From the NCBI GenBank assembly GCA_000002435.2, contig CM018793.1: DNA of 64,000 nucleotides; one strand, 5' to 3'. This document shows, piece after piece, positions 3,001 to 60,084 of this stretch. The DNA comes from Giardia intestinalis (lineage: Eukaryota). The number at the start of each line of letters is the position of its first letter. Positions within the stretch are counted from its first letter, which is position 1. The position numbers and the translations under genes were made by a program. Below the pieces are notes generated by a model. It was not told the DNA's origin. It searched no databases and saw only the letters and a list, made by a program, of their open reading frames with translations.

Positions 3001-3651
3001 CAATTCAAGGCCCTTCACATCATGATCAACGCAGAGATGGATAACAAGATGTGCGCATTAGACACAGCGGACATCCACACTGATTGGTACATGAATCAGT
3101 TCTTTCTGCTTCCCGCAGAGTACGGATATTTGACAACTGCAGATCTTAATTATATGGTTATGTTCTCTGATGCGTTTATGAAGCGTAACGAGCTTTCATA
3201 CAAATTTAGGATGCTATCTCACAGACAGATGTTGAGGTATGCTGATCAGCTTGGTGCCACGCCGCGGGAGAAGATGCTGAAGGAGTGGGTGAAGCAAATG
3301 GATGGGCTCATCGCCAACTATCGCCTGTCCACTGCCGTCAAGAGCATCATCAGAAAGATGAACACTGCCACGCATGGCTATGAGACCATTCAGAAGATTA
3401 TCGGCACTACAGACATTGACACTGTTAACAGATGGATGGCAGAGTATGAAGAGAGACGCGAAAAATCAGGGGTAGATTCGGCCCAGAAAACAGAAAAGTA
3501 CACTACAGAACGCATAATGAAGCGGATGGAGCAGATGGGTGTCCCCAATTTCTCAACCAAACGAGCTTACCTCACATCTATCGCTGGAACACTCCGGTTG
3601 TCCCACCACGGGATACACTCGTTTCTTAAGCACGATGCATCCGCACTCTAG
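43..3651 (+). CDS. Large hypothetical protein (1202 aa) with a Ser/Thr-rich acidic low-complexity central region; possibly 5'-truncated by the window edge
   Basis: Uninterrupted 3.6-kb ORF. There is no in-frame stop between position 1 and the ATG at 43, so the true start may lie upstream of the window. No recognisable domain. Low-complexity stretches (STSSTTSATVV, EYSYYETEYSSTEDD) seen in sequence. Confidence 0.6.
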   Translation: MEVQPECMQLQSRIMLKDDMDIIDCPHNESKRAAILLHEPLDRLVSKVDDSDYEDITELSAMFKTADKTSGLCQILYPRGEDIQALYTSVKDMPSHLFQLKYKYTRPPDTPLYAPFRDDSINKDSISMSLLMTVWAFLQANTLFLKLPFISLEDFSDALDVTDQFGYKRQLQYRSLTPEELKQAEEEDIKEYYFEKYHLTDKKDQLASTFPVFNGDLISPILYLVMSRLVSLLYDGEEEIVDEVPYEYTRKTSLVRRTVSTSSTTSATVVRAATAADAISRSPTESAGSATEISTAHENVSSDDLSSGADNKQSQEGTKSTEYSYYETEYSSTEDDIHEQLEKKKPPPKAVKKSPKSTSNVSVRVSGQANSRTPRKGPASNSIKSKRNTQVSDDSADEYSGEYSYTDYTYSDGEEETSYSTTDNVGSSQRSDQRTTGKRRIANAKERSSRSGRLSTRSEDQGSENRTEGYYCSTDISYTDEWDDIDGSKDTYWYDQALRYLLSRINESDRFTVILRILPIFFKLKIKYHKQLEKVASNLLRAILSAMSTDNLLAAILNECINPIRSYSNEEKQEAIEFVRQIALSREERAKEREAITVRQKGKRTLRMSKSSKYRSNSAQIAFKDSLADFFVLLQELSAYGKTIEQQQELQTFPHDADDYGITDIDQTAEEDQETNTIDFKPPTSVGSGQDTAPEEPKLKRTRAKDRFLEYMPHVPSALLSIAPSLHMSVCIIASYILENVYFILFLKRLLQYLHFSRAKQRPADYTPSHIRFHQLSVQEKLELLNYFIHQVSETENYHIYQAQEQSYSDSIESMSKELESALCLHFLKTRRETRKHELDGHKHKYEEKLNEARDLCLEKAKIVNTKWKEFAELIGVTTKKLIDANLVFEELDADGLSALSVDDPVAYQKYAGFQTPEHVDTLKKLMDTKGGTVTLANQQIRGFNMHLIRAIGSCTSALNKYRELKRVAISNQKFNHLYHERLDYQQFKALHIMINAEMDNKMCALDTADIHTDWYMNQFFLLPAEYGYLTTADLNYMVMFSDAFMKRNELSYKFRMLSHRQMLRYADQLGATPREKMLKEWVKQMDGLIANYRLSTAVKSIIRKMNTATHGYETIQKIIGTTDIDTVNRWMAEYEERREKSGVDSAQKTEKYTTERIMKRMEQMGVPNFSTKRAYLTSIAGTLRLSHHGIHSFLKHDASAL

Positions 3652-3735
3652 CTGCACGAGCTTCACCAAAATAATGTCAAGGCGATTTCTTGATAAATGC
3701 TCGAAGTTGCCAAAGATTGTTAAAAAAAGGTTTAA

Positions 3736-5079
3736 ATGGCCAATAGAAAGTGGTTTGCAGCTGCAGATGACGGGGATTTGGATTACATTTTGCTCCACTA
3801 CAATGAAATGGTTGGGAAACAGGATTCTCAGTTCCTAGATAGAACAGCCCTGATGTTTGCAGCCAACCGGGGCCACTATGAGATCTGCGAAATCCTAGCT
3901 CTTGGAAAGCCTAGTGAGGTCGGAATACTTAACCGCAGAGGGAATACTGCCTTGCACTTTGCCGCCTCCAACGGATATGTGAGAATAATTACTATGTTAG
4001 CTCCTCTTGAGGCGCGTGTGAGAAATGAAAATGGAGACACTGCGCTCACGCATGCCATTCTGAACGGCCATGCTGAAGCAGTAAGGGCTCTGATACCATT
4101 TGAGTTGGACTTGGTTGGTTCCGAGAACAAGTCTCCATTAGAGCTAGCCAAACAGCTAGGAAATCAAGAAATAATTCACATTGTCCAGACAGCTTTGTCT
4201 GAGCCTAGTCCGGCTATCTCCTACCCCGCTCCCCAGCTCTCTCACCGGCATCCGACTGTTCCTCCACTTGAGGAGCAGATTGGCAAAGAACATGTCATCA
4301 AGGATCTTTCACCCGTTATGAGCTATAGCAAGGATCGAGCTGCGCCTAAGCCGGAGGCACAAGACCTAGCATTATTCCGCTCAGCGGAGCATTCTATTGG
4401 CCTCAGCACGGCTCTGCCGCAGAACGCAGGTAGCACCTCACTATCAACACCAATAAATAGTGCCGACAGCAGCGCAGCAGGAAGCTACATAGACTCCTAC
4501 CAGTTGGTTCGGCCAACGCAACTGTTCGACAGGTCGACCGCTTCTCAGCGGTTAACAAGCTCGTTTACTGTTCCGTCGGTACTAGCAAAGTCCCAAAGTG
4601 CACAGCAAGACACTTTTTACCTGAACATCAGTGCAAATTATAGCTTTACCAAAGAGGAAGAGTCTGAGTACCACTCGTTAATGTCCCGGACTAGCGTATT
4701 AGAGAAGGCGAACAAGCAGCTCCGGGCGAAGAACGCCGCTCAGGTAACTAGGATTATGGACTTGGAGGACCGTAATGCAACCCTCACTAGTCTTTTAGAA
4801 ACGCTGATGAAGCCGGACTCTTATGCAGAAGAGTTCCGGCTGGATCAAATGATAGACGAACCTGTCAAAGGTAAGGACGCAGGGAAGACCGGTCGCCGAC
4901 CAGTGCCCAAAAAAAGATCTGATGAACCAATTAGCATAGAGGAGTCCCGCCTCATCCGGGAGGAGATCAAAGCTCTTCGTAAGGAAAACAAGGCTCTTAA
5001 AGACTGTCTGAGAGAGTTTTCTGAGAAATTTGACGCCTTTATGTTATCAACTGGGGCGGGCTTTTATACTACAGAATGA
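3736..5079 (+). CDS. Ankyrin-repeat protein with C-terminal coiled coil (Giardia 'Protein 21.1'-like)
   Basis: ATG preceded by 'taaaaaaaggtttaaATG'. Three to four ankyrin repeats (TALMFAANRGHYEICEIL, GNTALHFAASNGYVRIITML, GDTALTHAILNGHAEAVRALI). Heptad-rich C-terminus (LEKANKQLRAKNAAQ...IKALRKENKALKDCL). Confidence 0.8.
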   Translation: MANRKWFAAADDGDLDYILLHYNEMVGKQDSQFLDRTALMFAANRGHYEICEILALGKPSEVGILNRRGNTALHFAASNGYVRIITMLAPLEARVRNENGDTALTHAILNGHAEAVRALIPFELDLVGSENKSPLELAKQLGNQEIIHIVQTALSEPSPAISYPAPQLSHRHPTVPPLEEQIGKEHVIKDLSPVMSYSKDRAAPKPEAQDLALFRSAEHSIGLSTALPQNAGSTSLSTPINSADSSAAGSYIDSYQLVRPTQLFDRSTASQRLTSSFTVPSVLAKSQSAQQDTFYLNISANYSFTKEEESEYHSLMSRTSVLEKANKQLRAKNAAQVTRIMDLEDRNATLTSLLETLMKPDSYAEEFRLDQMIDEPVKGKDAGKTGRRPVPKKRSDEPISIEESRLIREEIKALRKENKALKDCLREFSEKFDAFMLSTGAGFYTTE

Positions 5080-5234
5080 GGGTGGAAAATGGAAGGAAGT
5101 TGACATAATGCTTCTCTTGCTAGCACAGAGACAACGCGGTTCTGGCAGATTCGCAGAAGGGCGTGCGTTCCCTGCGCTCTTCCCGGCGCCGCCGGATTTA
5201 GAATCAAAAAAATTAATTCGGCAGACGAGCAGAC

Positions 5235-7205
5235 ATGGTGCTGGCGTTTAGCGTTAAGCTTTTGGACTTCCAGCCCGTGCCTGTTTCTGGGAGCTTCTCA
5301 GTGGCAGATAGCGGGATGCAGTTCAATTCTACGAATGCTTCGGTAAGCCTCGCCATCTCCTGGTCGATAATTAGGTCCATCGTGATCGGTGAGATAGGAA
5401 AACGAGAGCGTAGTGGCCCATTCCTCGAGCTGTCGGTTTACATAACAGATAATCTGAAGCAGATGTATACATTTTCAGCCATACCTTTGACTGAGAAAGA
5501 GAGCCTGCTGAGCCTGCTTAGGAGCCATCTTGGCGATAGCTTTCCCATTCTTGATCGTCGCTATGTGACCACCGGCTGGAACTGGGGTTCCTTAGCTGTT
5601 TCAAGCGCTGCCGTCAGCTTCATTCCCAACTCTGTCTTCCTCACGGAGTCTAACGCCTCGCGCACAAATCTTGCCAATAATGAGGACGTTGCTCCCGTTG
5701 GTGGCGAGGAGGGATCTTCTGCAAGCGAAGATAGCGAAGCAAGTCAGATCAGTGAGGACCCTGTAGAGGACCTTTACTTCCATATACCGACGACTATGGT
5801 GGACGACCTCAAGAGTCTAGGGGCAAGAGAGATATCTTTGACCCTTCAGGGTAAGACTTCTGAGACAAACGCCCTCATGTCGGTCAAAGAGGTTGTTTTC
5901 ACAATTCCCGATAAGCAAATATGTAAGCAGATGTATGACCGCCTCATGCACGTTGTGGATACGCGGGCAAGTGGAAGGATCGTTAGTGTTCCGGAGTTGA
6001 GTGTTTTTACCAGCAAGTCCAGCAAGTTCACTCTAGAGGTTAATCTACGGTCGTTCAGGTTCTTCTCTTGGAACAATAACTATCACAGACTTCCTGATAC
6101 CATCACCAAATACTTCTTCGTCGAGAAGCCTAGCTATAGTAGTGAGTCTGTCGAGTATTTCTTCGTCATTATGTTTACACAGGGTAATGGGTTTGTAAAG
6201 GGTCTGGATAGCATCTGCATGCTTTTGCCACAGCGAAAGCTCACGCGAGAGATCATTCTTCCAAGAGATCCTGACATCGCGGATTCCTTGCTCCAGGAGA
6301 TGTTATGCGACAACCCTAGAACGTACGACGAAGATAATCCGCCATACGGTCCATATAGTTTGCTGTCTGCCCGAACTACTGGAATCCAAACCCACGGAGT
6401 AAGCTACGAGGCCGACCGGCATATTGCTGTGTTTAATGGCGTCGAGACATACATGGTGATACCTCGCCTATTCCATTATCTCACGCCGAAGAAGAGCTTC
6501 GTTTGCACAGAGCACTCTCAGACCTGTCTTGATAAGAAGATCTACAGCTCGATAACGTACAGCTCCATCCGTATCCGAGAAGGGTATGGCGGACACTCGA
6601 CTTATCCGTGCGTGGAATGCAAGAATCGCGTGACTCAACAAAAGACTGTCTACCTTTATTTCCTTGACAAGCGCCAGGGCCTTTTGATGCTTCCTTACGC
6701 GACGATCTACATCCCCTACACTAGCATCAGTAGAATGACGCTGGAGAACGATACTTCCAGAGGGGCCACCGGCAAGAAGAATCCTGTGAAGCTGGTGGTG
6801 TCGACAGCTGGAATCGTGCACGAGTTCACATCTATAGACCGGGATCACTGCGACGTCATAGAGCAGTATCTTCGCGGCTGTGGTGTCGCTATTAGTGTTT
6901 CGTTACAGGCCTCAAACAGGGGCCATGGAGGCATGTTTGGGGACTTGGACATGGATGAAATGGGCAGCGATGATTCCGATGACGCTGACTTCGAGGCTGC
7001 GCCAGACTCGAGTAGCGGTGAATACACCGAGGATTTGGAAGAGATTAATTCCGACGAGTCGGAGGTTGGCGAGAATCACGATCACGAAGTCCAAGCTCTT
7101 AAAGCTCGCACAGAGCGGACGAAGAAGCGGGCGATATTTGAATGTTATGCAGACATTCGCTCACAGGACTGCCTGCTGGCTGTGCCAAATCCGTCGTCCT
7201 GGTAA
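5235..7205 (+). CDS. Hypothetical protein (656 aa) with strongly acidic C-terminal tail
   Basis: Long ORF starting at ATG 5235, with the A/T-rich stretch 'aatcaaaaaaattaattc' about 20 nt upstream. Acidic tail (DLDMDEMGSDDSDDADFEAAPDSS). No domain recognised. Confidence 0.55.
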   Translation: MVLAFSVKLLDFQPVPVSGSFSVADSGMQFNSTNASVSLAISWSIIRSIVIGEIGKRERSGPFLELSVYITDNLKQMYTFSAIPLTEKESLLSLLRSHLGDSFPILDRRYVTTGWNWGSLAVSSAAVSFIPNSVFLTESNASRTNLANNEDVAPVGGEEGSSASEDSEASQISEDPVEDLYFHIPTTMVDDLKSLGAREISLTLQGKTSETNALMSVKEVVFTIPDKQICKQMYDRLMHVVDTRASGRIVSVPELSVFTSKSSKFTLEVNLRSFRFFSWNNNYHRLPDTITKYFFVEKPSYSSESVEYFFVIMFTQGNGFVKGLDSICMLLPQRKLTREIILPRDPDIADSLLQEMLCDNPRTYDEDNPPYGPYSLLSARTTGIQTHGVSYEADRHIAVFNGVETYMVIPRLFHYLTPKKSFVCTEHSQTCLDKKIYSSITYSSIRIREGYGGHSTYPCVECKNRVTQQKTVYLYFLDKRQGLLMLPYATIYIPYTSISRMTLENDTSRGATGKKNPVKLVVSTAGIVHEFTSIDRDHCDVIEQYLRGCGVAISVSLQASNRGHGGMFGDLDMDEMGSDDSDDADFEAAPDSSSGEYTEDLEEINSDESEVGENHDHEVQALKARTERTKKRAIFECYADIRSQDCLLAVPNPSSW

Positions 7206-11749: not shown

Positions 11750-13372
11750 ATGGAACCTAAAAGTGAATTATTGACATTAAGCTGGTTCTATTGGCCTATG
11801 CGTTTTCACTGCCGCTGCATAGAGAAGATGTGCCGCAATTTTGTCTTCGGCTCTCCGATACCGCTTCTGTCCGTCAGTAAAGCGTGGAACATCTTGAATG
11901 ATGTCTATCAGTTTGGAGGGCTCAACGATCACATTCTTCAAGCCGCCCGTGACAGCTGTTTTATAACACGCTTCACAGCAGGCACATTCCAGGCCTTCGC
12001 CCAGGCCGTCCAGAGAAAGGAGGCCGCAGCCTATTGGATAATTAGAGTCTATAAAGGCCACGACTCTTACACTCTCAGCTCTACCATCGAAGTGAGACAC
12101 AAAGGAGAAGCAGCCGCGCGTTTCTCTATGATCTGTGACATCTCGCACAGCTACATACAAGCTAGGTCTGCATTCGACGTCCCTCTCGCATGTGACAAGT
12201 GCATCGCTGAATTTGCAGACAAGCGAATGGGGGCACCTGCACTGATCTCGTGGTCTCCTCGATGCACTGTATTTAGAGCTGTTCCTCAAACGCTTCGCGG
12301 AACGTTTCAATCTCCTGCCAATCGACTGTCCACGAGTCCTCCAAGTCCAGCCAAGGCACTGGTTAGTAAGGGTGTTATTGTTCTAACGCCGCGTTCTCCA
12401 GAATCTCGCTCTGTCCCAGCACCATCCCACAGAATCCCATCTCCTCAACCATATACGTATAGATATGCTCTCTGTGCACGTCCTTCGTCTTTTGAGCAAT
12501 CACCTAACAGAGACACTGGCATGTACATTGGTATGCCGCAATCTGACTCCAGAGATGGCGAAGAGGTCCTCAGGCCTATCTTTCCAGTTTCCTGCCGAGC
12601 CATGGTTGATGAATACAGCTACTATTCTTCTATGTACTGCGTCTCTGCGTCCTACATGTTTTCATCTCTGGATGTTTTAGGAGAGCTGGTTTCTGACCGT
12701 GTCCTCACCGACATATCTGACTTGATGGATCCAATTGCGAAGGAAGCGCAGGATTTCGAGCTCTCGTTTACCGACTTATTTACTGACTCAGAAAGCACGG
12801 AATGCGTAAGCACAAGCACAGAAGGCGATAAGAGCAGTAGGGATGATATTAGCGAAGATGACATTAGCGAAAGTGGGAAGCAGGAGGAGCATGAGACAGA
12901 ACCTCCTTTAAAGCAGCAGGAAAGGGGGGACGCAAACAATAGACTCTTCGCTGATAACATTAGAAGGGCTAATGGAACTAATAAGGCTGCACGGATGGCA
13001 TCGCAGGTCCTAAAACGTATAGAGAACATGAACTCTGTGGCCCCAGGGGCAAGTGGGGACAGTCAGGTGGACAGTAATGAGATAGTGCCTATCGTAGGAG
13101 AAGCCGTAGAAAAGATCGAAGAGACGGCAACGGACAAATACATTCGCTCAATGCCTCTACACTATCCTATACTGGCCATTCCGTGCCCCGATTCTAAACC
13201 CTATGACTCCGGACAGCATCTTCTGTCGCCATCTTCTGGTACATCCTCTCCAGCCAAAGGACAAAGGCTTTCAGACTCATCCAAGGTCTATAACCACAAA
13301 ACGTTCATGAACCTCGAAGACCTGGTGCAGCACTTCTGCTCTTTAATTGTGGCTGGGAAGATAGATAAATAA
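11750..13372 (+). CDS. Hypothetical protein (about 540 aa)
   Basis: The ORF track starts at a TTG (11447), which overlaps the ZIP gene in another frame. The first ATG is at 11750 (MEPKSELL), just after the ZIP stop. Acidic S/D/E-rich segments. No domain recognised. Confidence 0.5.
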   Translation: MEPKSELLTLSWFYWPMRFHCRCIEKMCRNFVFGSPIPLLSVSKAWNILNDVYQFGGLNDHILQAARDSCFITRFTAGTFQAFAQAVQRKEAAAYWIIRVYKGHDSYTLSSTIEVRHKGEAAARFSMICDISHSYIQARSAFDVPLACDKCIAEFADKRMGAPALISWSPRCTVFRAVPQTLRGTFQSPANRLSTSPPSPAKALVSKGVIVLTPRSPESRSVPAPSHRIPSPQPYTYRYALCARPSSFEQSPNRDTGMYIGMPQSDSRDGEEVLRPIFPVSCRAMVDEYSYYSSMYCVSASYMFSSLDVLGELVSDRVLTDISDLMDPIAKEAQDFELSFTDLFTDSESTECVSTSTEGDKSSRDDISEDDISESGKQEEHETEPPLKQQERGDANNRLFADNIRRANGTNKAARMASQVLKRIENMNSVAPGASGDSQVDSNEIVPIVGEAVEKIEETATDKYIRSMPLHYPILAIPCPDSKPYDSGQHLLSPSSGTSSPAKGQRLSDSSKVYNHKTFMNLEDLVQHFCSLIVAGKIDK

Positions 13373-13704
13373 TTTACAAAAAAATTGATTACATGCAGAA
13401 GTCTTATCAAGAAGTTGGTTTGTACGCTGTGTCCAGCTAACAGTCCGTGGTGGCGAATAATACAGTACATGAACATACACTTACCAGGGCAGGTGTTTCT
13501 CGGCTTGTTTTCGCTGTTTACTCTCTGATTTGTGCTGAAAGCTTACCATCCCACGCCTAATTAGAGGAAATTAAATGCAAAAAACGTTCTGTTTTTGGGC
13601 AAAACCTTGGTAAGAAATGTTGCGAAGCACAAGACTTTGGTTGGAGGTCAAACCGATCGCATGGCTCGTCTTATCGATGGAACTAAAAGACCTCATTTTA
13701 AAAA

Positions 13705-15456
13705 ATGTCAATTGATGGGGGAACCACCGCAAGATCTACAAGTCAATTGGAGGGTACTGACTATTGTGGCAGAAGCACTAGGGAATCCTCGCACAGTAGC
13801 TCTAGTCATCACCAGAGTACACGCAGTAGAAAGGGCGTTGCCCCCTGTTCTATGATAGATAACAAACACAAAGGCAGGTTGTCTGCGCAATCCTTGGCTT
13901 CCATGCGGCGGAGGGGGTCAGAGAGCTCGTCGAGACTTAATGGAAGAGCTCCCAGCTCGTCGTATTCCAGGGATCATCACATCTGGACTGAAAAAGAAGT
14001 CAAAGAATTCTATACGATTCTGGTGAGATGGGGTTCGTTGCAGTTCAAGAAAATCTCATCTGTTCTTCAGCCCGACGAGGAAGGATCAAGCACTCGCTTT
14101 AAAAATAAGTGGAATGGAGAAAAGAAGAGAGCAATTATTCGGAGGCCTACGTATGATTGCAGAACTCTGATCATCTCTGTGATCAATGACTATATCGCAC
14201 TGCTTTTCGATTCCTCCCCTGGTCCTGTTGTTGGCCAGGAAGAGCGGGAAAGGCTCGCATCTTGGATAACTGATTTGATTGCCACTCTGCCTCTGGACAC
14301 AAACAAAAACACATCTCACCAGGTTACCAAACATGTAGTAGATGTATACAATAAATTCTTCAACTATAGAACCAAGCTCGACATGCTTCGGTGCCTCTAC
14401 GCGGACAACGGACTGACCCAACCACTCGAGCATGTCACTCTGGGGCCTGCACAGTCGTCACCCCCAGTTGTGGGTGCCAACCCCATGCAGCTTTCCGCTC
14501 CTCTAGCTATGTCTTTGTCTCCCCAGCTGCAGGTCCAACCAGCTATGCCCGCTCTGGATCGGTGCGGTGTTGCACCCGAGAATCCACAGTATCAGCATCA
14601 GCAACAGATACTAGCGAATGCCTCGCCTTGCTTTAATGTCAGCCTGCAAAACTCAGCGCAGCAGACGCTCACAAACCACGTATCCTCCGTCCTTGTCCAA
14701 CCAATCTGGTCACTCAATACCGCAGAAGGAGTCGCTATCCAGAACCCCTGCCTTATACAGTCTGCTAATGGCCTGATTCTTGCGCAGGACCTCACCACTC
14801 TGCCTAACAGTGACCTGATAGCGCAGCTAAGGAACATGCTTGGGATGCCGCAGTATAGCAATATAGCCCAGATGCCATTCAACGTTCACCAACCCGAAGG
14901 AAGGGAAGCAATCATCAAAGCTATAATAGAGCAAAACGAACGGGTAAATGCCCAGCTTCGGCAGCAGCTTGTCTATCAACCAGTTTATCAACATCTGCCA
15001 CAATTCATCTCTATCTCTGCACCGGTTCTCCCAACTGTGACATACAGAGATGTTGAGTCGCCTCCTCAGGTGACGATCTGCCTTGCCAATGCACAGAGAG
15101 CTGCTGACTTGGAGACAGTCAATGCAGTTGACGCAGTGGCTGTGACCCTGCCGCAACAAGGACAGATATTTTGCGAGTCCGTCCCAGCACACCCTGCGTC
15201 AACTTTCTCCATTAACAACGTTTCATCCGAGACTATCAGTCCGCGTCTAGTTGACCCTAGATTAGCTAGTTCTGCTGGCCTGGAAACACGGATGCGGAGT
15301 CCAGACATGCTCGCAGTTTCTTCGGCCTCTCCAGCTCCCTCGATAGATGGAAGTTTTAGCAGTAAGGATACCCCAGTTGAAATAAGCGATTCTTCTGGAA
15401 AGATAAGGCCAACGATATCGGCATCTCTCGAATCAACAGGCCCTTCGTTGCCATAA
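13705..15456 (+). CDS. Hypothetical Q-rich protein (583 aa), possible degenerate SANT/Myb-like segment
   Basis: Initiator 'cattttaaaaaATGtca'. The N-terminal stretch HIWTEKEVKEFYTILVRWGSLQFKKIS...KNKWNG has Myb-like tryptophan periodicity, but with atypical spacing. The C-terminal half is Q/P/S-rich (PQYQHQQQILANASP). Confidence 0.55.
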   Translation: MSIDGGTTARSTSQLEGTDYCGRSTRESSHSSSSHHQSTRSRKGVAPCSMIDNKHKGRLSAQSLASMRRRGSESSSRLNGRAPSSSYSRDHHIWTEKEVKEFYTILVRWGSLQFKKISSVLQPDEEGSSTRFKNKWNGEKKRAIIRRPTYDCRTLIISVINDYIALLFDSSPGPVVGQEERERLASWITDLIATLPLDTNKNTSHQVTKHVVDVYNKFFNYRTKLDMLRCLYADNGLTQPLEHVTLGPAQSSPPVVGANPMQLSAPLAMSLSPQLQVQPAMPALDRCGVAPENPQYQHQQQILANASPCFNVSLQNSAQQTLTNHVSSVLVQPIWSLNTAEGVAIQNPCLIQSANGLILAQDLTTLPNSDLIAQLRNMLGMPQYSNIAQMPFNVHQPEGREAIIKAIIEQNERVNAQLRQQLVYQPVYQHLPQFISISAPVLPTVTYRDVESPPQVTICLANAQRAADLETVNAVDAVAVTLPQQGQIFCESVPAHPASTFSINNVSSETISPRLVDPRLASSAGLETRMRSPDMLAVSSASPAPSIDGSFSSKDTPVEISDSSGKIRPTISASLESTGPSLP

Positions 15457-15722
15457 CCTTCATTACCATAATATCCTGATCATCTTTCTAAAAATTTCTG
15501 TAAGGAGTGTGCAATCCATGTAATAGACTCACTGATCTTTTCGTTCAGATTTTTATCTAGAATTGCCCATAATTTTTAATCTTTAATCTTTAGTGGTCAG
15601 TATGCTTTAGTTATATCTTATAGCTTTTTTAGCTGCTCTTTTGTCCTTTGCTCTCTTTCGGTGTTAGTTTCCTTGCCCGTTTCCGATTGATTTGCGTTTC
15701 CATTTTGCTTTCCAATTAAAAA

Positions 15723-17312
15723 ATGGCCGATGTTTCATTTCTTGAGCCATACAAAGAGCTGTTGGTCTCAGATGATATTATTAGCAACGCTGACGAACTA
15801 GACCTTGTGGTTTTACCCTTGTATGACGAATCGGATGCAAAGTACTATCGCAACATCATTGAGGGTTTCTGCAGAATGCAGGAGTATACAGACTTTTGGA
15901 AGACGATGAAGGTTTTGCGTAACCAGGTCTTTGCCCTGACGAAGAAGTGCGACCCAACCAAAGAGGACATTCTTTTCCCAAAAGATAGTCTCGTCTTCCC
16001 TTCCAGTCTCCTAGACCCTATGCGGTCGTGCATGACCCCAAGGTTTCCTAACGTGCGCTTCAAGAACCTCGACGGCACCGCGTCTTACGTCATACAATTG
16101 ACCGACCTTACTACATGGGGAAACGCTGCAAGCCAGTGTAATGGAGCTGCGCTTGTCAAAAACAGTGTAGATACAGTCCCTGCCCCGATATTTAAAATTA
16201 TCGACGGTAAAGCAACGCACTGGAGGACAGGGGACTACCTACCAGAATACATGACAGACGCCCTGTTTCTTCTTGACGAAGCGCGAATCAGTGTTAGTAC
16301 CGTGGAGAAAGAAAGTTGTGGTGTCGATGACCTTGATTCTCCTCTCTTTGTTGGCGGTGAACTTCACTACCGTATTGTTCTCACAGTTAACAAGCTCTGC
16401 TCCGAAAATCGTATGTTTGAAGAAAGCTATGGAGTGGCTTGCATAGGGTCGTTCTGCCTAGAATCGTCTGAATTGATAAGGCCCAACACAATTGTCAAAA
16501 TGGATGATGGGGTATATGTAGCTACACTCTCACCAACAGACAAAGATGACTTGGCTCACTTTCAAATCTCTCTAACAACGAGTAGTATTGCGCTGTTGAG
16601 AACTGTCCCAGTACTGTCTGACGCACCATCTGCCGGGATAGATGGCAAGGGTATTGACATAGAGATATTAGACTCAATCCCATTGAATGGGTCACTATAC
16701 CACATGGCCATCATTGCAGGCTCAAGTGCTCCTAGGAACATACTCCCGTCCAGAAAGGTGGATCTCAAGATTGCCCTACGCCCTTCAAAATCCGTTGAAC
16801 CTCTACCAGTGAAAGACTTTATGATTCAGGATACAATATCAATGTTCAAACACTCAGATATAACGGAGGTTTTAAAGTACGGATGCGGTCACTACATGAC
16901 TCCAAACTATGGAGCGCAGCTTCTTCGCTTGCCCGTGGAGTGCTTCTTCGGTACTGGTATGTGTGCGACTTCACAGCATATTCGCCTGACAGTGCATGTG
17001 ATTGCCCTGATGCTGGCTTTAATTAGTGTTATAATAATGCTCGTGTACATTGTGGGAAAACTGATAGCAATTAGACGATTGAAGGCAGCATCACGAAAGC
17101 AGGAGGCTGACACCGGGATTGTCCTGCGTCACAGCGTTACAAAGACCTCTAGAAGCGCTCTAAAAAGGGTTGTCCGAGAGAGCCAACGCATACATGCCAA
17201 CCACTTGGATCGGAAAAGAATGGCTCTCAAAGCAGCTATATCCAATGCAGGACCAATGAGCTTACGGGACGCTTCAGCGATTTTGGATGTATTTTCGCTG
17301 AACAATCAGTAA
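15723..17312 (+). CDS. Hypothetical protein (529 aa) with a single predicted transmembrane helix near the C-terminus
   Basis: Initiator 'ccaattaaaaaATGgcc'. Hydrophobic segment LTVHVIALMLALISVIIMLVYIVGKLIAI followed by a basic stretch (RRLKAASRKQ). No obvious signal peptide. Confidence 0.55.
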   Translation: MADVSFLEPYKELLVSDDIISNADELDLVVLPLYDESDAKYYRNIIEGFCRMQEYTDFWKTMKVLRNQVFALTKKCDPTKEDILFPKDSLVFPSSLLDPMRSCMTPRFPNVRFKNLDGTASYVIQLTDLTTWGNAASQCNGAALVKNSVDTVPAPIFKIIDGKATHWRTGDYLPEYMTDALFLLDEARISVSTVEKESCGVDDLDSPLFVGGELHYRIVLTVNKLCSENRMFEESYGVACIGSFCLESSELIRPNTIVKMDDGVYVATLSPTDKDDLAHFQISLTTSSIALLRTVPVLSDAPSAGIDGKGIDIEILDSIPLNGSLYHMAIIAGSSAPRNILPSRKVDLKIALRPSKSVEPLPVKDFMIQDTISMFKHSDITEVLKYGCGHYMTPNYGAQLLRLPVECFFGTGMCATSQHIRLTVHVIALMLALISVIIMLVYIVGKLIAIRRLKAASRKQEADTGIVLRHSVTKTSRSALKRVVRESQRIHANHLDRKRMALKAAISNAGPMSLRDASAILDVFSLNNQ

Positions 17313-24524: not shown

Positions 24525-25826
24525 ATGCTTTCAGAACTGGCAGATATCTTTAGTGCGTATAAAGAAGTAGACGAACTCAATAGCATAACAGAGAAGTTTG
24601 GCATACTCGCAGAGCAAGTGGCCACTGCAGGTTTTGGACTTTTCGGAGTGGCTACCCTTCAGGCTATTGCCCAAATCACCATGAAGGTCTTTCATCATCT
24701 TAAGGAAGATGATTCCGAGCGCATGCTCCTCCTTTTGCTCAAGCATGGTCTCCTGACACGAGAAATCCTTATCTATCTTATCTCAAATACTACAACTTCG
24801 CTCACCTCTTTCCTATCTAAGCATATCTCTGACGTACAGCGACTACCACCTCACCAACGGGCCCTTTTACTCAAGTATGCTGCGCTGTCCCACAGATGTG
24901 ATCATCCTCGTCTGGACGAAGACCTCTTCAGAGCCATCAGTCTTCTCTTCATCGGTGGATGCACTGTTGGCCCTCACGCGACTTTGCGAAATCTTTTTCT
25001 AAGTGGGGCGTGTAACCATAAGACGCGCTATGGAGATTGTCTGGGATCTCGACTCATTGATGAGTGTATTGCCGCAGAAACATCTAGAGGTGTGCATTCG
25101 CGCAACATTATACTTAGTTTAACTGAGAACTACTTTCTTGGTACTCATGATAAGCAGGAAAATCGGTCTATACTCGACTCCATATATTTTCTACTAAAGG
25201 ATGCTGATCACGATGGTGTATGGAAGGATATTACCATGTTACCTCCAGTGACCATGTACATAGATCTCAGATCACAAGATAACTTTCATAGACACCTCCA
25301 TCTGCGCTTTATGCAGAATGAGATCAGCATCTATATGTTAGCGTGCGCACTTTCCCATTGTAACGACATTCCAGAAGTAATATCAAATGTATTTTCTAAT
25401 ACATTCACCCTGCTTCCAAGTGATCTCGCCAAATCTGCCGTTATATCGCTTGTAACCAACAGTACTGATGACCTGTTAGAAACTGACTTGAGTACTGCAC
25501 AATCATTGGACAAACTGCTGCTTAATCTGCCAAGTACACTGCAAGGTGAACCAGAGATTAAAAGAATGACGCTACAAAGACCAATTTATCCCACTGACAT
25601 GGCGCCGCTTGAAGATAACAATTCATCGATAGGTAGCATTAACAATCACGTTTTAGAGCAACAAGTCGAAGAAGATTATTCTAGCTTGATTGCGAGTACT
25701 GCAGATGATAGCTTCAAACAGTTCGTCTCTTCCTATCATTATAACTATCTTTTCATAGCAGGAAGCCTTCACGGCCTTGATGAAAACTTCTTTACTGAAG
25801 CCGCTGCCTTCATTTATGCTTCTTAA
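24525..25826 (+). CDS. Hypothetical protein (433 aa)
   Basis: ATG-initiated long ORF, divergent from the WD40 gene. No recognisable domain. Confidence 0.55.
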   Translation: MLSELADIFSAYKEVDELNSITEKFGILAEQVATAGFGLFGVATLQAIAQITMKVFHHLKEDDSERMLLLLLKHGLLTREILIYLISNTTTSLTSFLSKHISDVQRLPPHQRALLLKYAALSHRCDHPRLDEDLFRAISLLFIGGCTVGPHATLRNLFLSGACNHKTRYGDCLGSRLIDECIAAETSRGVHSRNIILSLTENYFLGTHDKQENRSILDSIYFLLKDADHDGVWKDITMLPPVTMYIDLRSQDNFHRHLHLRFMQNEISIYMLACALSHCNDIPEVISNVFSNTFTLLPSDLAKSAVISLVTNSTDDLLETDLSTAQSLDKLLLNLPSTLQGEPEIKRMTLQRPIYPTDMAPLEDNNSSIGSINNHVLEQQVEEDYSSLIASTADDSFKQFVSSYHYNYLFIAGSLHGLDENFFTEAAAFIYAS

Positions 25827-26199
25827 GGAATAGAGGCTTAGCTCTGTATCGGTGGCCTGTTAGATTGCAGATATATTCAGTAGGCTTATACCTTTTCGCT
25901 TCAGAGGCACTGTTGTTGATAACTGGTTATCAGTAAAGTAAATGGGTATGTGTGTGGTAACTGTATGACATAGATGCCTGTCATAGACCTACATGAATGC
26001 CGTCTTGTATCTGGCTGAATGCTCTTTATTGTCTAAGTCGCCTTGTCTGAGCTCTGGAGAAGAAGGACAGTGTTGGTCCATAATAAGGCTTAATAATCTA
26101 GTGGAGCTGTGTGCTCTCATATGTTTTGCAATAAGTCGTGCAGTTTGTGCTCTCCAAGTCCAGTAAGAACAAAGCTTTCGTCCATCATTCTTATAACCT

Positions 26200-28150
26200 C
26201 TCTATGGTGCGCACGGCGATGACCGCTGTACATGGAGTCAGTGGATTCCACCAGATGCACTTGTAGACTTCACACCTGCAGGAGTCGGAGACTCGGACAG
26301 TCTGTCTCCTCTGTGCTCTGCGGGTTCTCCGGTGTCTTGCAACGCTGCTATCCTGAAAGGTGTCTGGAAGGAGAATCTTCTTGAGCAGCAGGAGCACCAT
26401 GGGGCCACCACTCACAGGCGACAAGCGGCTGCAGTCGGCCCTTCCCTGCGTGTCCCTCGTATGGGCCGCTCCTTATTGCATAACAACGTGTCATGCCGAT
26501 GGGGTGATATCCACTACCCAAACAGGCCGGTAGCGGTCCTGGCTGTCTGAGGCACTGTCCCACTGTGTGTCTTTACCAACGCCGGCCCCACCCATGTGCC
26601 AGCTGCTGCATGGATTCCCTGCTTGATGCGGCCTGCAGGAGGAGTAGAGCCTGTTCTCCTGCTGGGTCACCGCGCATTGCTGGGGGATGCACCGGACAAG
26701 CATCTCGAGTGTCAGACGAACCGGCCGGGGCAGGCACCCGCTCGATAACCTGCCCAGTACGGGCACTGGCCTGTCCTGCCACACAGTCACTCGGGCGGAG
26801 TCTCCGTCACTTCCTGACATTGATCCGTTGAGGGCGAGCCGCATGACCGACAGGAGCAATCGTGCAGCTGGGTCCCGCTGTGCCATCGCTCACGCTTGAT
26901 GAGCTACGTGGCCAACGGGAGACGTGCTGGCAAGGGATTTCCTGGTCTCACCGTGAGTCAGGTCGCTGTCGCCCTTGTTACCTCTACAGCAGCAAGGCAG
27001 GTGCTGGGGATGTTCGTGACCTCAGGCTTGCCAATATCGTCGCGTCCCTGACCTCGGCCTCTGCAGGGGCGTCCTGTAACGGTGTGAGTGAGACCTCCAC
27101 GCACTGTAGCTCCCCGCATAGGGTAGCCCCCCAAAGGTGCACCAGGGCCACTAGCTGCTGCCCAAGGATGTCAGACGGCCACTAGGGGTCTGCTCAGGGA
27201 GCCGCAAGGCAGCACCAGCAGACTGCTCCCAACGGTGGTGCTCTTTACGCTATCGAGACGGAGGCGCCGTTCTTTGTCCTTTGCCTCTGCTGCTGTGTTA
27301 GGGCTTGATCTACCGGGCCTGGCAGGAATAGCGGTACCAGAGGGTGCTACCATAGCAGGCGTCCCGGTGCGTCTTCCGGCAGGATGGATTGCCATACAAT
27401 GGAGAGTGCGATGAAAACCTTGCTGCTTACGGGAAACCAGTTCGGACCGCCTGCGTCTTGGTGTGGCCGTGCTGCCCAGCTGGATCAAGGCAGTCGTCTC
27501 ACTGAAACCCGTCACCTTCACGGGCAGCTTTGACCTCTTTCGTCTTCATGGGAGCAGCTCCCCTGTTCTTATCTACGCGCCATCCTTGTGTATCATAAGC
27601 GCCTCTTTTGCCTCTGGCTGTCCTGCACCACCGCCACATCAACAAGGCGCCTTTGTATGCACTTCGTCCGGCTATAGTAGCATCTCTGGCCATCTTCTAC
27701 CCTTTTGAAAAGAAACGGCAGATTTACTCATGGGCCGCAGAGCAGTCCAAAAGTCAGTGTGACAGCGACACCAGGTGCACTGCTCCCAAGGAGAGACACC
27801 GCCTCAAACCAGCCCTATTGTGTCTGTTTCCCCTCTCCTCCTGCGTACTGCGCCCATGAGGACGCCCGGCTGTGACTAGCATGCCCGTCGCTTCATGTTT
27901 CAGTGGCTGTGCAGTGCTGCTCGTACGAGTATCACGGCTCTGTCCGTACTGGCTGGGCCGTACTGCCCTCGCTATCAACTAGATTCTCCTCGGGATCAAA
28001 GGGAGGCGGCGATCATCAGGTAGTCCAGCCGTTCTTGTCCTGGAGGCCCCTCTCCTCCCCAACAAGCAACTCGACGGGACTGACGTGCCCCTGTGCGGCA
28101 CGCTGGCCAACGCCGAGTTTTTCTTCAAGCAGCATCCAGACGGTCTCAGT
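26200..28150. other. GC-rich (roughly 60%) ORF-free island, about 2 kb, between two convergent genes; candidate ncRNA, decayed gene or foreign insert
   Basis: No ORF longer than 131 aa in any frame across about 2.3 kb (25827-28151). Composition shifts abruptly at about 26200 to G+C-rich sequence with many short ORFs in all six frames, the signature of stop-poor non-coding GC-rich DNA. Other convergent gene pairs in this window are 10-46 bp apart. Confidence 0.5.
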
Positions 28151-28151
28151 G

Positions 28152-29282
28152 CTATTTGTGTGCAGCACGCATCAGCCTGGGCAGCAAAAAGAGGCTGGAC
28201 TGAGGGTCAGCCGTGTTCATCCTGTCACCGAACTGTGCAAGCCTATTCTCCAGTGCTTTAATCATAGCTAGATGTTCCTTACTTTGGTCTTCAAGCGCGT
28301 CGATCTTAGTAGATTTAGTCTTAACATCCTCTTCCAGCAGCGCGATCCTGGCGTTAGCGCCATTCAGCGCAGCCTCCAAGGATCCGCACTTATACTTCAG
28401 CATCACGCACTGACCTCCCAACTCACTAACTGGGATGTCTGCTGTGGTGAGCGTCTCGTGCAGCTCCCTGGCTGTCAGTCTTTCCTCTGGCTCCAGCACG
28501 AATATCCTCTCCAGAACACTCTTTATGAAGCCATCAGTGACACCGCTCAGATCGGGCCTCCACCCGTCGATGAAGACGTCTTTTGGGTCTTTACCTTTCA
28601 GGAAGTCCGGCCTCTTCAAAGTAGTAAGCTCGTAGACGATGACCTCGAGGCTCCACACGTCGGAGGCGGGGCTGGCCTCGTTGTGGAGGAGCACCTCGGG
28701 GGCAACGTATGCCATTATTCCTATGAGAGTGCTCCCACTCCACAATGTGTTCCTGCAGAGGCCGAAGTCGGCGATGACGAAGCGCTCTCCGTCTGCGCTG
28801 ATAAGGACATTGGCAGGCCTGAGATCACAGTGGACGAGGCCTCTAGTGTTTGCTCCATTGACGCTGTGGAGGTAGGCGAGGGCGGCAGCGAGCTGTTTCA
28901 TGACGGAGAGGATCGTAGCGATAGGGATGGGGATCTTCCTTTGTTTGTGCTCGGCGAGGAGGTGCTCGAGGGTACTGTCGTGCCGGTCCGTGACGACGTA
29001 GATGAGGCCTTCGTCCTCGACCACTTGATGGTGCTTGAGGACTCCTGGGTGGGAGAGCTCGGGAAGGGTGGCCAGCTCTAGTTTGATGGTGTCCACGTCA
29101 TCCTTGTCCAGGCCGTCGATGAGGATCTCCTGCACAGCGAGGTCCGGAAAGTCCTTGAGGGAGTAGACTGTCACCATAGTGCTTTCATTAAGCACATCAC
29201 CTAACCGCTCGTGGAGCTCCTTGGAGGTGAACGGTGGGACACTGAGAGTCACCGTTGCAGATCCAGACGAGGCGGCGTACAT
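28152..29282 (-). CDS. NEK-like protein kinase with degenerate glycine loop and C-terminal coiled coil
   Basis: Catalytic loop HCDLRPANVLI, DFG (IADFGLC) and APE-like YVAPEVLL are present. The N-lobe lacks a clear GxGxxG (LGDVLNESTMVTVYSLKD). Heptad C-terminus (LEAALNGANARIALLEEDVKTKSTKIDALEDQSKEHLAMIKALENRLAQ). Initiator 'ccaaaataaaaccaagATG' on the minus strand. Confidence 0.8.
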   Translation of the reverse strand: MYAASSGSATVTLSVPPFTSKELHERLGDVLNESTMVTVYSLKDFPDLAVQEILIDGLDKDDVDTIKLELATLPELSHPGVLKHHQVVEDEGLIYVVTDRHDSTLEHLLAEHKQRKIPIPIATILSVMKQLAAALAYLHSVNGANTRGLVHCDLRPANVLISADGERFVIADFGLCRNTLWSGSTLIGIMAYVAPEVLLHNEASPASDVWSLEVIVYELTTLKRPDFLKGKDPKDVFIDGWRPDLSGVTDGFIKSVLERIFVLEPEERLTARELHETLTTADIPVSELGGQCVMLKYKCGSLEAALNGANARIALLEEDVKTKSTKIDALEDQSKEHLAMIKALENRLAQFGDRMNTADPQSSLFLLPRLMRAAHK

Positions 29283-29590
29283 CTTGGTTTTATTTTGGTA
29301 ATCTACCGTTTTGGAAACGATCCGTTTCCACAGGGGTTTGTGTCTACGGATCTGTAGTGACCACTGCTTGCGGAGGACTACTGCATCAGGGGCGAGAAGG
29401 CCACCTGTGCGACTGTTTCACCCATCGGCGTTCCAGTGCTGACTGGGGGCAAGGAGACCTGCTCCCCCTGGCCTCTGCGGAAACGGGTGGTTGTGTGCCC
29501 CACTGACAGCCATCACTTCACCCTAGTGGCTGACCATCCCTTTCCAGAGCTGGAGGGAAATTCTAGTCTACCGTTAGACGTAATCAACAG

Positions 29591-30256
29591 TTAAGCGCGT
29601 TCACTCACAAGCTTCCTGGGCGGCATCCGCAAGTATGGATCTACAATACCCTCACTCTCGAGAAAAGATACTACCTCTGGATGCTGCCATCTATTGGCCA
29701 TATGGATGGCATCTACGCCACTTATGTCCCTCTCCTTCTCTAGTAGCAACTTGACACACTCCAGATGATCATGCCTTGCTGCAAGCACGAGGGCAGTATA
29801 ACCTCTGCCCTTCTGCATGCCGCCCTCAATCTTCAGGAGTAGTCTCACGACCTCGGTACGGCCAACAAGTGCCGCCCACATGAGGGCCGTCCACTCCTCA
29901 CTGTCCCTCATGCCGCCCTCGCACCTCATCAGCAGCTTCACCGCCTCAACGTGTCCAAGCGCTGCGGCGACCATCAGGGCCGTCCCTTCGCGTATTTTTA
30001 CTCTCCCTGCCTTGACAAACCTTGCCACCATCCTTGCCTGATAAGGGATGTAGTGCTTCACCGCTTTCACGTCGTTTCTGCTGGCTGCCTTCATAAGTGT
30101 GGTGACGCCGTCCTCATCCACGCTGCCTTCATCATCCATTTCTGAAGGCTCAGTTGGGTTTACTGCGCCCTCTTCGCTCATGTCCTTCTCTGGCGCGAGG
30201 GGCGGGGCGCAGTCGTGATCCTGAAGGAGTTGACCTGAATCATCCGCAGACGACAT
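29591..30256 (-). CDS. Ankyrin-repeat protein (221 aa), 'Protein 21.1'-like
   Basis: Four ankyrin repeats (TTLMKAASRNDVKAVKHYI; TALMVAAALGHVEAVKLLM; WTALMWAALVGRTEVVRLLL; YTALVLAARHDHLECVKLLL). Acidic N-terminus. Initiator 'gcagtaaaaATGtcg'. Confidence 0.8.
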   Translation of the reverse strand: MSSADDSGQLLQDHDCAPPLAPEKDMSEEGAVNPTEPSEMDDEGSVDEDGVTTLMKAASRNDVKAVKHYIPYQARMVARFVKAGRVKIREGTALMVAAALGHVEAVKLLMRCEGGMRDSEEWTALMWAALVGRTEVVRLLLKIEGGMQKGRGYTALVLAARHDHLECVKLLLEKERDISGVDAIHMANRWQHPEVVSFLESEGIVDPYLRMPPRKLVSERA

Positions 30257-30705
30257 TTTTACTGCGGGTCACATAGAACGCGTGCTTTGTACTTCTAGGC
30301 CCTCATTTACGAGCGCATTCAGAGATTGCATGAGTGGGTTTCGCCTACTATGAAGGAAGACCAAGGGGAGGAGCGCCACTGGTAGATCACCTAGATTGAC
30401 CATACACACCGTACAGAACAACCGAAAAGGCGCCAAGCTCTGGATGCACTAACGGAAGGAATCCCCTCGCTATGCTATTATAACCAGCCTTCGTTTCTAG
30501 ACATGGTTAAGAAATAAGTGAGGTTTGCCCATGCGGTCTTAGGCCATACCCACAGGCGAGGCCCAATAGTACAGTCTTGGAAAGTTGCCAATTATCATGA
30601 GATGGTGTATTGTGACAAGATCTTAATGAGTAATTGCAATTAATCGTGAGGAAAGAGCTTCCACCAGAATAGAAAGTGGTTGAAGTTGCTTTAACCAAAA
30701 TCCTA

Positions 30706-31836
30706 ATGCCTGCCGAAGACGCAAAGAGAACTACTCAATGGTGCTTTTTTGACGTTGACGGAGTGCTAGTCCATGAGTGCGGAGTGGCATATGCGGGGTA
30801 CTGGCTTCAGCTAGAGGCTCTGCGCACGGGAGCAATCCCAGACAACTATATTAAGTTTCTCGAAATACCGGGTGATGTAAAGCGCCAGATCGACTCTCTC
30901 CGTCCCCATGTGAAAGGCCTACACTTCCGAAGAAAGATAGAAAAGATACATGCTTGTCTTGCTGAGGCAGGAGAGTCTGTAGTAGACCCCACGGTCTTGG
31001 ACCCTGTGACGCTCATCAAAGCCGTCATGGAGGCTCAACGGGCTTATATTCAGCACCATTTCCCTCCTGAAAACTACCGCGTTCCCGGCTCTGAAGACCT
31101 ACTGCGGGATCTGTCCAAGAAGTTTTTCATCTGCACTTTGACAGCCAACGACTTTGAACAGACGTCGTGGATTCTTCGATACGTAGGCCTGGATTCATAC
31201 TTTACGGAGCTTCTTTGCTATCGGGCCGAGGCTCCTGGCCTACAGACAAAGGAAGATCTGTTGAAAGACTTCCAAGTTCGGCATCCAGACGTCGACTTTA
31301 CACAGTGCATCGTCCTAGGTGATGGGGTCCCTGATGTTCGCGCTGGGGCTGCCATGGGATGCTTCACTATCGGCATCTGTAAGGATCCCGACGACTTTGC
31401 AAAGCTTGCAGAGGCCAATTTACTGGTTAATGTGGGAGACTACGCCATCATTCCAGCGCGCCTCCAGGCTCACAGGTTTATTGCAGATAGCAGTGGGCTA
31501 ACCTTCACCCCTCGCCACTGCAGCAAGCCGTGCGACCCCGACGCAGACTGCACCGTGGAGTTCTCCTGCCAGCAGAAGAACGCCCCCCAAGAGCTTTCTG
31601 CATGTGTGATCTGGGACATCGCCTGCAACGAGACAGAGACGCCGCTGGGGAGCGTCCGCAGAAGTCCGGAGGCAGCCCACACCTACAGGGTCCAGATTCC
31701 CCTAGGCGGCGCCCCCCGGAGCGCAGTGACCAACGTTGGGATGGTGGTGCTGCGCGACGGGGCCGCCGTCGTCCACAGACAGCTCTTTCGCGTGGCGTAC
31801 GTCGCAGAGAGCGCGGTCGCGCTGCAGCTACTGTGA
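30706..31836 (+). CDS. HAD-superfamily hydrolase-like protein with an atypical GC-rich C-terminal extension
   Basis: HAD motif I FFDVDGVLV, motif II-like LTANDFE, motif IV LGDGVPDVRAGAAMG. The track start at 30676 is a GTG; the first ATG is at 30706 ('ccaaaatcctaATGcct'). The last roughly 115 codons (about 31500-31836) are markedly GC-rich and open in several frames on both strands. Confidence 0.7.
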   Translation: MPAEDAKRTTQWCFFDVDGVLVHECGVAYAGYWLQLEALRTGAIPDNYIKFLEIPGDVKRQIDSLRPHVKGLHFRRKIEKIHACLAEAGESVVDPTVLDPVTLIKAVMEAQRAYIQHHFPPENYRVPGSEDLLRDLSKKFFICTLTANDFEQTSWILRYVGLDSYFTELLCYRAEAPGLQTKEDLLKDFQVRHPDVDFTQCIVLGDGVPDVRAGAAMGCFTIGICKDPDDFAKLAEANLLVNVGDYAIIPARLQAHRFIADSSGLTFTPRHCSKPCDPDADCTVEFSCQQKNAPQELSACVIWDIACNETETPLGSVRRSPEAAHTYRVQIPLGGAPRSAVTNVGMVVLRDGAAVVHRQLFRVAYVAESAVALQLL

Positions 31837-32033
31837 GCCGGCGGGTTGAGTGAATGATCAGAGAAGCCGTTCGTCAGGGGTCAGACTGGGGCGGCGTAAT
31901 TCTCGTCATGGAGACTGCCTGCCTCACTTTTTTTCTTCCCAAATTGAATTTACAATACTTTTGATTTTATTGTAAAATTTGGGACCAGTGTGCGCATGCA
32001 TTATTTTCTCAGCGCCTTTAGGTTGTCTGGCGG

Positions 32034-59450: not shown

Positions 59451-60084
59451 TTAATTTATTGGGGCAAAATGTTGTAATTTCACTTCGTAATAGATAGTGG
59501 TCAAAGTTATTATGCGTCTCAGAATTTTTTAGCAAGTTGTAGGACTCCTCCTCTGGTGTCATGCACTCTCGGATCGTCCCGGTGTCGTACCCCCAGACTA
59601 AAGACGGTCTGCTCGGACCTTCATACAATATCCCTTTCCTCCGGGGATTAGCCAGACTCTGCCATATAGCATTTACATCGTTGCAAGCATTAGAGAGATT
59701 GCCTTTTAATTTTAATTAAAATCTTCGCTTATGTCATGGCACATTCACATTCCTCTTGGTCACTAGTATCTACGTTATGCCAGCTCCCCTACTCCTGCAG
59801 TTCTCATTCTGAAGGGTAGCACGTCAAACACTTTGATCAACCCCACTGACGCTTATTTAATTTATTTTGACAAAAGTAGTATAACAGTAGATGGTAGCCA
59901 GATAGCTGCTACACATTGGAATGAGATAAAAAGCATATTAGATGCCGGATAGCAGAATTTCATTTTGCACAAAGGATAGATCAACCGACACGACCTCATT
60001 GCTCTCTTTCTCCACTGGAGCCTGATGTACACAGAGAAGATGCGCCTTTACACATAACATCTCAGCAGCCAGTAACGCTCTGTG

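Follow-up and report, generated by a model that had tools for sequence, protein, structure and literature searches.

In Giardia, the Nek-GL4 kinase subfamily turns over rapidly, 30 kinase pseudogenes have been described in WB, and TALM-type ankyrin repeats can be found after the kinase domain (PMC3218828, Manning et al. 2011). In addition, genes of the VSP, NEK, Protein 21.1 and HCMP families have been described as forming GC-rich islands of atypical composition, which are associated with synteny breaks between WB and P15 (PMC3091692, Jerlstrom-Hultqvist et al. 2010). The locus analyzed here is a gene-free island of 2.3 kb (25827-28151), which lies beside a NEK gene and an ankyrin gene in a window of 64,000 nucleotides of Giardia intestinalis contig CM018793.1; all positions given are those of the window. 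Apart from a unique spacer, the island is likely the non-functional debris of a NEK/ankyrin cassette duplication, the copies of which have been homogenised by gene conversion, and which is located at a synteny breakpoint.

The flanking genes, the left part of the island and a neighbouring snoRNA are as follows:

24525-25826, plus strand: left flanking gene GL50803_0010400 (KAE8305328), hypothetical protein of 433 aa, exact protein match to WB (ATCC 50803)
25827-26187, no strand: unique AT-rich sequence between the genes, either spacer or the left gene's 3' UTR, GC 0.41
25937-25943, plus strand: Giardia polyadenylation-type motif AGTAAAT in the AT-rich spacer, from a motif scan
28152-29282, minus strand: NEK kinase gene (KAE8305329 / XP_001708962), 376 aa, Pfam Pkinase E 4e-31, exact WB match
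29591-30256, minus strand: Ankyrin repeat protein 1 gene (KAE8305330), 221 aa, Pfam Ank_2 E 5e-28, within the duplicated block described below
31856-31916: GlsR4 snoRNA, full-length, from an Rfam scan of the window

The preliminary description of this DNA had pointed to convergent flanking genes with no ORF longer than 131 aa between them, which is indeed the case for the genes at 24525-25826 (+) and 28152-29282 (-). It had also singled out the island as the largest gene-free gap of the window, and this was confirmed, the five other convergent pairs being only 11-47 bp apart (19245/19285, 40640/40674, 47370/47417, 51676/51687 and 55839/55851). The accessions KAE8305328, KAE8305329 and KAE8305330 are consecutive, and the current WB annotation therefore contains no gene in the island. 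The left gene is conserved across assemblages A, B and E. The NEK gene belongs to a family of paralogues with 70-84% identity, and none of the other assemblies yielded a NEK that is at least 90% identical to WB's protein (a cluster of 1).

The scarcity of long ORFs in the island is what is expected for a random sequence of equal composition, as the longest open stretch comprises 132 codons compared to 152 +/- 35 in shuffled sequences, and the total number of stops is 95 compared to 116 +/- 9. The GC content, determined in 300-bp windows, is 0.40-0.42 until about 26200 and 0.54-0.63 for 26200-28150. The earlier statement that the stretch from about 26200 onwards is richer in GC than its surroundings holds true relative to the left neighbour, but not on the right, where the NEK and ankyrin genes themselves have values of 0.51-0.59. 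Because these two genes are also GC-rich, the real compositional unit is 26188-30284, with 0.51-0.63 compared to 0.40-0.48 leftward. The step at 26188, from about 0.41 to about 0.60, is the sharp left edge of this block.

By comparison with related loci, the island can be divided into three parts, namely the AT-rich spacer, a GC-rich module and a frameshifted NEK 3' tail. The spacer (25827-26187) shows no codon phase, and its identity to WB is 100% in a second assemblage A isolate (L001), 97.8% in isolate DH and 69.6% in P15. The other parts and the features in or next to them are:

26188-27936, no strand: non-coding module, GC about 0.60, mostly of undetectable origin (from stops, phase, Pfam/Rfam and folding)
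26949-27090, plus strand: NEK catalytic-core relic, from the catalytic loop (...DLRPAN...) to DFG, with internal deletions, from a DNA profile
27722-27728, minus strand: polyadenylation-type motif AGTAAAT, possibly the 3' end of the NEK transcript, from a motif scan
27937-28151, minus strand: decayed NEK 3' tail, from paralogue C-termini, DNA alignment and nhmmer

A decayed gene was among the explanations put forward in the preliminary description, and it is supported at two places, since the right 215 bp are a frameshifted NEK tail and 26949-27090 is a relic of a NEK core. Within the tail, 28016-28151 consists of about 45 formerly coding codons, which are still open, but which a WB-specific loss of 2 bp near 28156 has shifted out of frame. 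In a four-way DNA alignment WB has a 2-bp gap and a TGATGA stop is common to the sequences; 27937-28015, which lies downstream of this stop, is what is left of the first TALM-type ankyrin repeat. The C-termini of paralogue NEKs extend beyond the WB stop with one frame shifted and at up to 88% aa identity (tblastn), nhmmer homology of the tail to the NEK paralogues L009 and L010 of DH reaches 27937, and a protein HMM of the NEK family matched 28019-28159, in addition to a sub-threshold match of the catalytic loop. The WB NEK gene at this locus is therefore freshly truncated.

The core relic has the opposite orientation to that of the intact NEK gene. With a DNA profile made of the NEKs of WB, L008 (the DH copy described below), L009 and L010 it scored 32.7 bits (E 2.4e-12, profile positions 345-517), compared to a maximum of 1.5 bits among 200 dinucleotide shuffles; its local alignment had z = 12.8, and nhmmer searches with single sequences matched L009, L008 and L010. 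The signal at the protein level is weak, as the tblastn score of 25.4 bits was equalled by 4 of 60 shuffles and is not significant. It was the DNA profile that made the relic convincing. The relic has the similarity to the kinase domain, and relic and tail have the disrupted frame relative to intact paralogues, that mark a NEK pseudogene or relic.

Of the island's 2.3 kb, altogether about 350 bp are recognisably NEK-derived. When 26188-26948 and 27145-27936 were compared with NEK/ankyrin cassettes on both strands, z ranged from -0.3 to +0.7 and nhmmer --max likewise found nothing, and the alignments do not bear out a derivation of the whole module from a NEK(-ankyrin) gene. Some 1.5 kb of it resembles only its own copies, and as this part has no similarity to anything else, we infer its NEK/ankyrin origin by association.

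The module, or its NEK-proximal part, could also be transcribed with the truncated NEK gene as a 3' UTR of unusual length, which would act in cis on the mRNA. The AGTAAAT motif at 27722-27728 (-), which the NEK stop precedes by about 425 nt, is conserved in L008, and no such motif lies nearer to the stop codon. Giardia 3' UTRs are, however, typically tens of nucleotides long. In addition, AGTAAAT is a short motif with 44 matches in the window compared to 30.6 expected, and a 3' UTR of this kind would cover only 27700-28151, leaving 1.5 kb unexplained. This reading is considered unlikely for the module; at most, the NEK-proximal 430 nt or so may serve as 3' UTR of the truncated gene.

Debris of a cassette duplication is suggested by the larger unit to which the module belongs:

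26188-30284, minus strand: 4.1-kb GC-rich duplicated block of module, NEK gene, spacer and ankyrin gene, from the alignment to L008

The block corresponds to one single alignment of 4111 bp with 88.7% identity to contig AHGT01000055 of isolate DH (L008, 7935..3880). The order in L008 is the same (ankyrin, NEK, 2 kb without genes) but the neighbours are others, namely a VSP at one end and, at the opposite end, a 174-aa ORF together with an Arf GTPase. Both edges of the block, 26188 and 30284, are sharp, the identity falling from about 95% to about 40%. A further DH copy, L012, has the flank of the 433-aa gene and is the orthologous locus, whereas L008 is flanked by the 174-aa and Arf genes. DH thus harbours two copies with different flanks in one genome, and these, together with the sharp edges, are the marks of a dispersed segmental duplication. 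The preliminary description had also considered a rearranged segment, which agrees well with a duplicated block of 4.1 kb at a break of WB/P15 synteny.

The module copies in L001, L012 and L008 show 94-98% identity. Over 934 bp (26188-27118), L012 and L008 are 98.2% identical to each other while their identity to WB is about 94% in each case; this difference, seen next to a spacer with 97.8% identity to WB, suggests gene conversion within DH. The short-read contig L001 has no differences to WB in the about 2.2 kb that were compared upstream of 26188, but there are 42 within the module, and at 22 of 37 substitutions it carries the base of the DH paralogue, although a contig of this type may be a chimera or a collapse of paralogues. 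Whether conversion or collapse accounts for this pattern, it follows either way that there is more than one copy per genome. In many independent assemblies the contigs run out 120-1800 bp beyond the left gene, and three unitig-style contigs stop at 26224, that is 36 nt inside the repeat, as unitigs do when they enter a repeat. The 4.1-kb repeat unit defined here breaks short-read assemblies of Giardia.

A sequence that is multi-copy, GC-rich and in a non-syntenic position, with 1.5 kb of no recognisable origin, might be taken for the remnant of a mobile element beside the NEK gene, for example of a dead non-LTR retrotransposon such as GilD, and sequences derived from retroelements have been reported at sites lacking synteny in WB and P15 (PMC3091692). 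However, no reverse-transcriptase or endonuclease domain was detected by Pfam in any frame at E<=1, neither a target-site duplication nor a terminal repeat nor a poly(A) tail was found at the block edges, and Tandem Repeats Finder reported no tandem repeats. Moreover, the repeat unit contains two intact cellular genes, and the recognisable pieces of the module are all NEK-derived. The retroelement remnant proposed in the preliminary description thus gained no support from the protein domains or the block edges, and we regard a mobile element as improbable.

The coding potential of the module was assessed in all four copies. In WB there are 12-22 stops per frame in all six frames, and stops are likewise present in every frame of the three other copies (L001, L012 and L008). 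An intact ORF conserved in other isolates, which had been named beforehand as the finding that would speak against a gene-free island, is absent, the longest open stretch among the copies being 176 codons. Between WB and L008 the module has 103 substitutions, which are distributed over the three phases as 37/30/36, compared to 77/37/49 in the NEK gene. The module shows no codon periodicity and is non-coding. Translated in six frames with stops as X, it gave no Pfam family at E<=1, which also leaves a laterally acquired segment, another of the earlier proposals, without support. A VSP pseudogene is not indicated, as the VSP domain PF03302 was not found in this search either, and the sole match in the window to the extended VSP polyadenylation signal ACTTAGGTAGTRAAYGC (up to 3 mismatches) is at 20256, outside the island. 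A chimeric query, joined from all 31 open stretches that reach 45 aa or more and compared with an index of 5.8 billion proteins, had no match at E<=0.01 among at most 8000 candidates; low-complexity proteins probably took up these places, and the result therefore carries no information.

One ORF of the gap has a history in the literature:

26491-26886, minus strand: chance ORF once annotated GL50803_10403 (XP_001708963.1), 131 aa, the longest ORF of the gap

It was annotated in 2007, its exact match XP_001708963.1 is present only in old sources and is gone from the current annotation, and one paper has modelled it as a histidine kinase (PMC4670223), a role proposed in the literature within a two-component-like system. 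The frame contains one stop in L001 and two each in L012 and L008, and the substitutions per codon position in these three other copies (4/5/1, 6/9/11 and 7/10/13) show no third-position bias. A search against 1.84 billion representatives found no credible homologue, but only the ORF itself, a Giardia fragment ORF, a low-complexity ORF and a weak match (E 6.2e-04). GL50803_10403 was rejected as a protein-coding gene in view of the stops in three copies, the missing codon bias and the missing homologues. It is spurious, and the proposed histidine kinase rests on a chance ORF.

More generally, a real coding gene might be hidden by sequencing frameshifts, or a short ORF such as GL50803_10403 might be genuine, as the annotation of 2007 and the histidine-kinase model would imply. 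The stops in every frame of WB, which are similar in number in three other copies, the lack of codon periodicity across the module, the removal of GL50803_10403 from the current annotation and the state of this ORF in L001, L012 and L008 leave such a gene with next to no credibility.

The comparison with P15 of assemblage E bears on the function of the module and on its position. P15 is homologous in the left gene, the spacer and the module as far as about 26800, the module homologue (26101-26800) having about 67% identity. The divergence of the module is 33.4% with a phase distribution of 65/70/70 and nine indels (lengths 1, 10, 2, 5, 11, 1, 1, 3 and 2), that of the adjacent spacer is 29.9%, and that of the left gene is 12.7% with a phase distribution of 25/21/59 and without indels. 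Because its divergence is like that of the spacer and unlike that of the coding flank, and because its indels include lengths that are not multiples of three, the module appears to drift neutrally between assemblages A and E. Past about 26800, P15 has a different GC-rich stretch of 4 kb, which is collinear with the DNA downstream of the DH NEK paralogue L009 and holds frameshifted C2H2 zinc-finger ORFs, followed by unrelated genes including PRP8. As both the sequence and the genes of P15 differ beyond this point, the island lies on, and marks, a breakpoint of WB/P15 synteny. The block at 26188-30284 thus unites the GC content, the NEK/ankyrin genes and the lost synteny of a GC-rich variable-family island.

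A structured long non-coding RNA gene was among the proposals of the preliminary description; one that travels with the NEK/ankyrin cassettes could account for a conservation between the WB and DH paralogues that is above that of the neighbouring genes (5.7% divergence compared to 12-18%) with almost no indels. The Infernal/Rfam scan proposed at that time was run and left the island without any family, as it gave no island match at the gathering threshold in the whole window or at E<=5 in 25500-28500. Mean folding z-scores were +0.20 and +0.23 for the two strands with 3 of 56 windows below -2, and the coding flanks were no worse. Furthermore, the divergence of 33% from P15 with many indels is like that of the adjacent spacer, and everything past about 26800 is absent from P15. 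The structured RNA was therefore not borne out, and we consider it very improbable.

Between WB and L008 the divergence is 5.7% in the module, 14.4% in the NEK gene, 18.5% in the spacer between NEK and ankyrin and 11.9% in the ankyrin gene, and only two indels, both small, interrupt the 1.8 kb of the module. From the low value in the module we infer a mosaic history, in which the module would have been homogenised more recently than the genes, and this reading of recent conversion agrees both with the DH copies being 98.2% identical and with the neutral drift compared to P15. Alternatively, the low divergence between WB and L008 may stem from purifying selection that acts on the module in assemblage A.

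Indeed, a selectively maintained role may be imagined for the 1.75-kb module as a non-coding element of NEK/ankyrin cassettes (VSP-linked ones in DH), either as a hotspot of ectopic recombination and conversion or as an lncRNA specific to assemblage A. Maintenance by selection would explain a paralogue divergence threefold lower than in the accompanying genes and spacer and the near-absence of indels, and a hotspot module would, if real, drive the reshuffling of the variable gene families of Giardia. We give this idea only a slim chance.

The reading of the island as debris of a NEK/ankyrin cassette duplication would imply the following course of events. The module would have arisen as NEK/ankyrin cassettes were duplicated, segmentally or in inverted form, and recombined ectopically with one another, and it would then have undergone mutational decay. 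Gene conversion would keep the module copies alike within a genome, by which the identity of 98% within DH compared to 94% between isolates would be explained. The high GC content, finally, would reflect an origin in, and recombination with, a GC-rich compartment of variable families. The module itself is probably without a function of its own. The largest unannotated gap of the window is thereby accounted for, and it adds to the described cases in which NEK/ankyrin genes rapidly arise, die and recombine within the GC-rich variable regions of Giardia.

Compared with the Nek-GL4 pseudogenes (PMC3218828), the locus is alike in that a truncated NEK adjoins a relic of a kinase core, in that remnants of TALM-type ankyrin repeats follow the kinase domain, and in that the paralogues are about 80% identical with strain-specific gain and loss. 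It is unlike them in that only about 350 bp of the island are NEK-derived, and the likeness is one to NEKs in general; under the IDs tried, the locus is not in the supplement of that paper. With concerted evolution of dispersed repeats it shares the DH copies which are 98.2% identical to each other and about 94% to WB, as well as the 22 of 37 paralogue bases in L001, although conversion is deduced here from identity patterns in draft assemblies. With the GC-rich islands (PMC3091692) it shares the raised GC content, the NEK and ankyrin genes, a WB/P15 break at exactly this place and, in DH, copies that are VSP-linked (L008, L010 and L011); it differs in that the paper describes genes, whereas here half is gene-free debris and there is no VSP at the WB locus. 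The island fits the descriptions of the Nek-GL4 pseudogenes and of the GC-rich islands, and is a further, so far unannotated instance of known features of the NEK and variable families rather than a new type of element.

Within the GC-rich module of the repeat block, one reading frame had formerly been annotated:

26491-26886, minus strand, GL50803_10403, deprecated ORF

GL50803_10403 has been put forward as a histidine kinase of a two-component-like system (PMC4670223). Three other Giardia A copies have stops inside this frame, and a search of 1.84 billion representative proteins did not find credible homologues of it. GL50803_10403 is a chance ORF, and the published histidine kinase inference was built on it.

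Three independent Logan contigs (L007, L015 and L016) end at exactly the same base, 26224 of the window, which lies 36 nt inside the repeat boundary. These contig stops mark the edge of the repeat without the need of any alignment between paralogues.

The NEK kinase gene of isolate WB has lost about 45 codons at its 3' end (region 28016-28160, minus strand) through a 2-bp deletion which is absent from three paralogues in isolate DH. No stop has yet arisen among the displaced codons, and the truncation therefore looks recent. Antisense to the same gene runs an ORF of 269 aa (28272-29081, plus strand), for which a Pfam match was not found. It probably represents a shadow ORF, as GC-rich coding DNA can give. 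Opposite a 1199-aa gene, at 56421-59477 (plus strand), there are overlapping ORFs of a similar kind.

To the right of the repeat block, the Giardia C/D-box snoRNA GlsR4 was matched over its full length at 31856-31916 (minus strand; 83.7 bits versus a gathering score of 70). It is located in a very GC-rich patch (0.63-0.66) directly beyond the end of a HAD-hydrolase ORF (30676-31836).

The P15 contig L002 (ACVC01000200) contains an unannotated 4-kb stretch with a GC content of 0.60-0.69 (12479-16170), which is collinear with 2868-5357 of the DH NEK paralogue locus L009 and is bracketed by an 84% inverted repeat (12264-12437 / 16362-16549). The overlapping ORFs on its minus strand range from 166 to 305 aa in length, and the longest of them (305 aa, 14435-15352) shows C2H2 zinc fingers (E 1.6e-7). 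The stretch is either a pseudogene with frameshifts or a genuine gene that was split by sequencing errors.

Inverted repeats were also seen at or near contig ends in two DH NEK/VSP loci, namely a perfect one of 379 bp in L011 (AHGT01000157; 1-379 and 5362-5740) and one of 99.5% over 371 bp in L010 (7352-7721 and 12185-12555). They are either palindromic arrangements of NEK/VSP cassettes or assembly artefacts. VSP is absent at the WB locus, unlike the DH loci L008, L010 and L011, where VSP genes or VSP fragments adjoin paralogous ankyrin-NEK cassettes.
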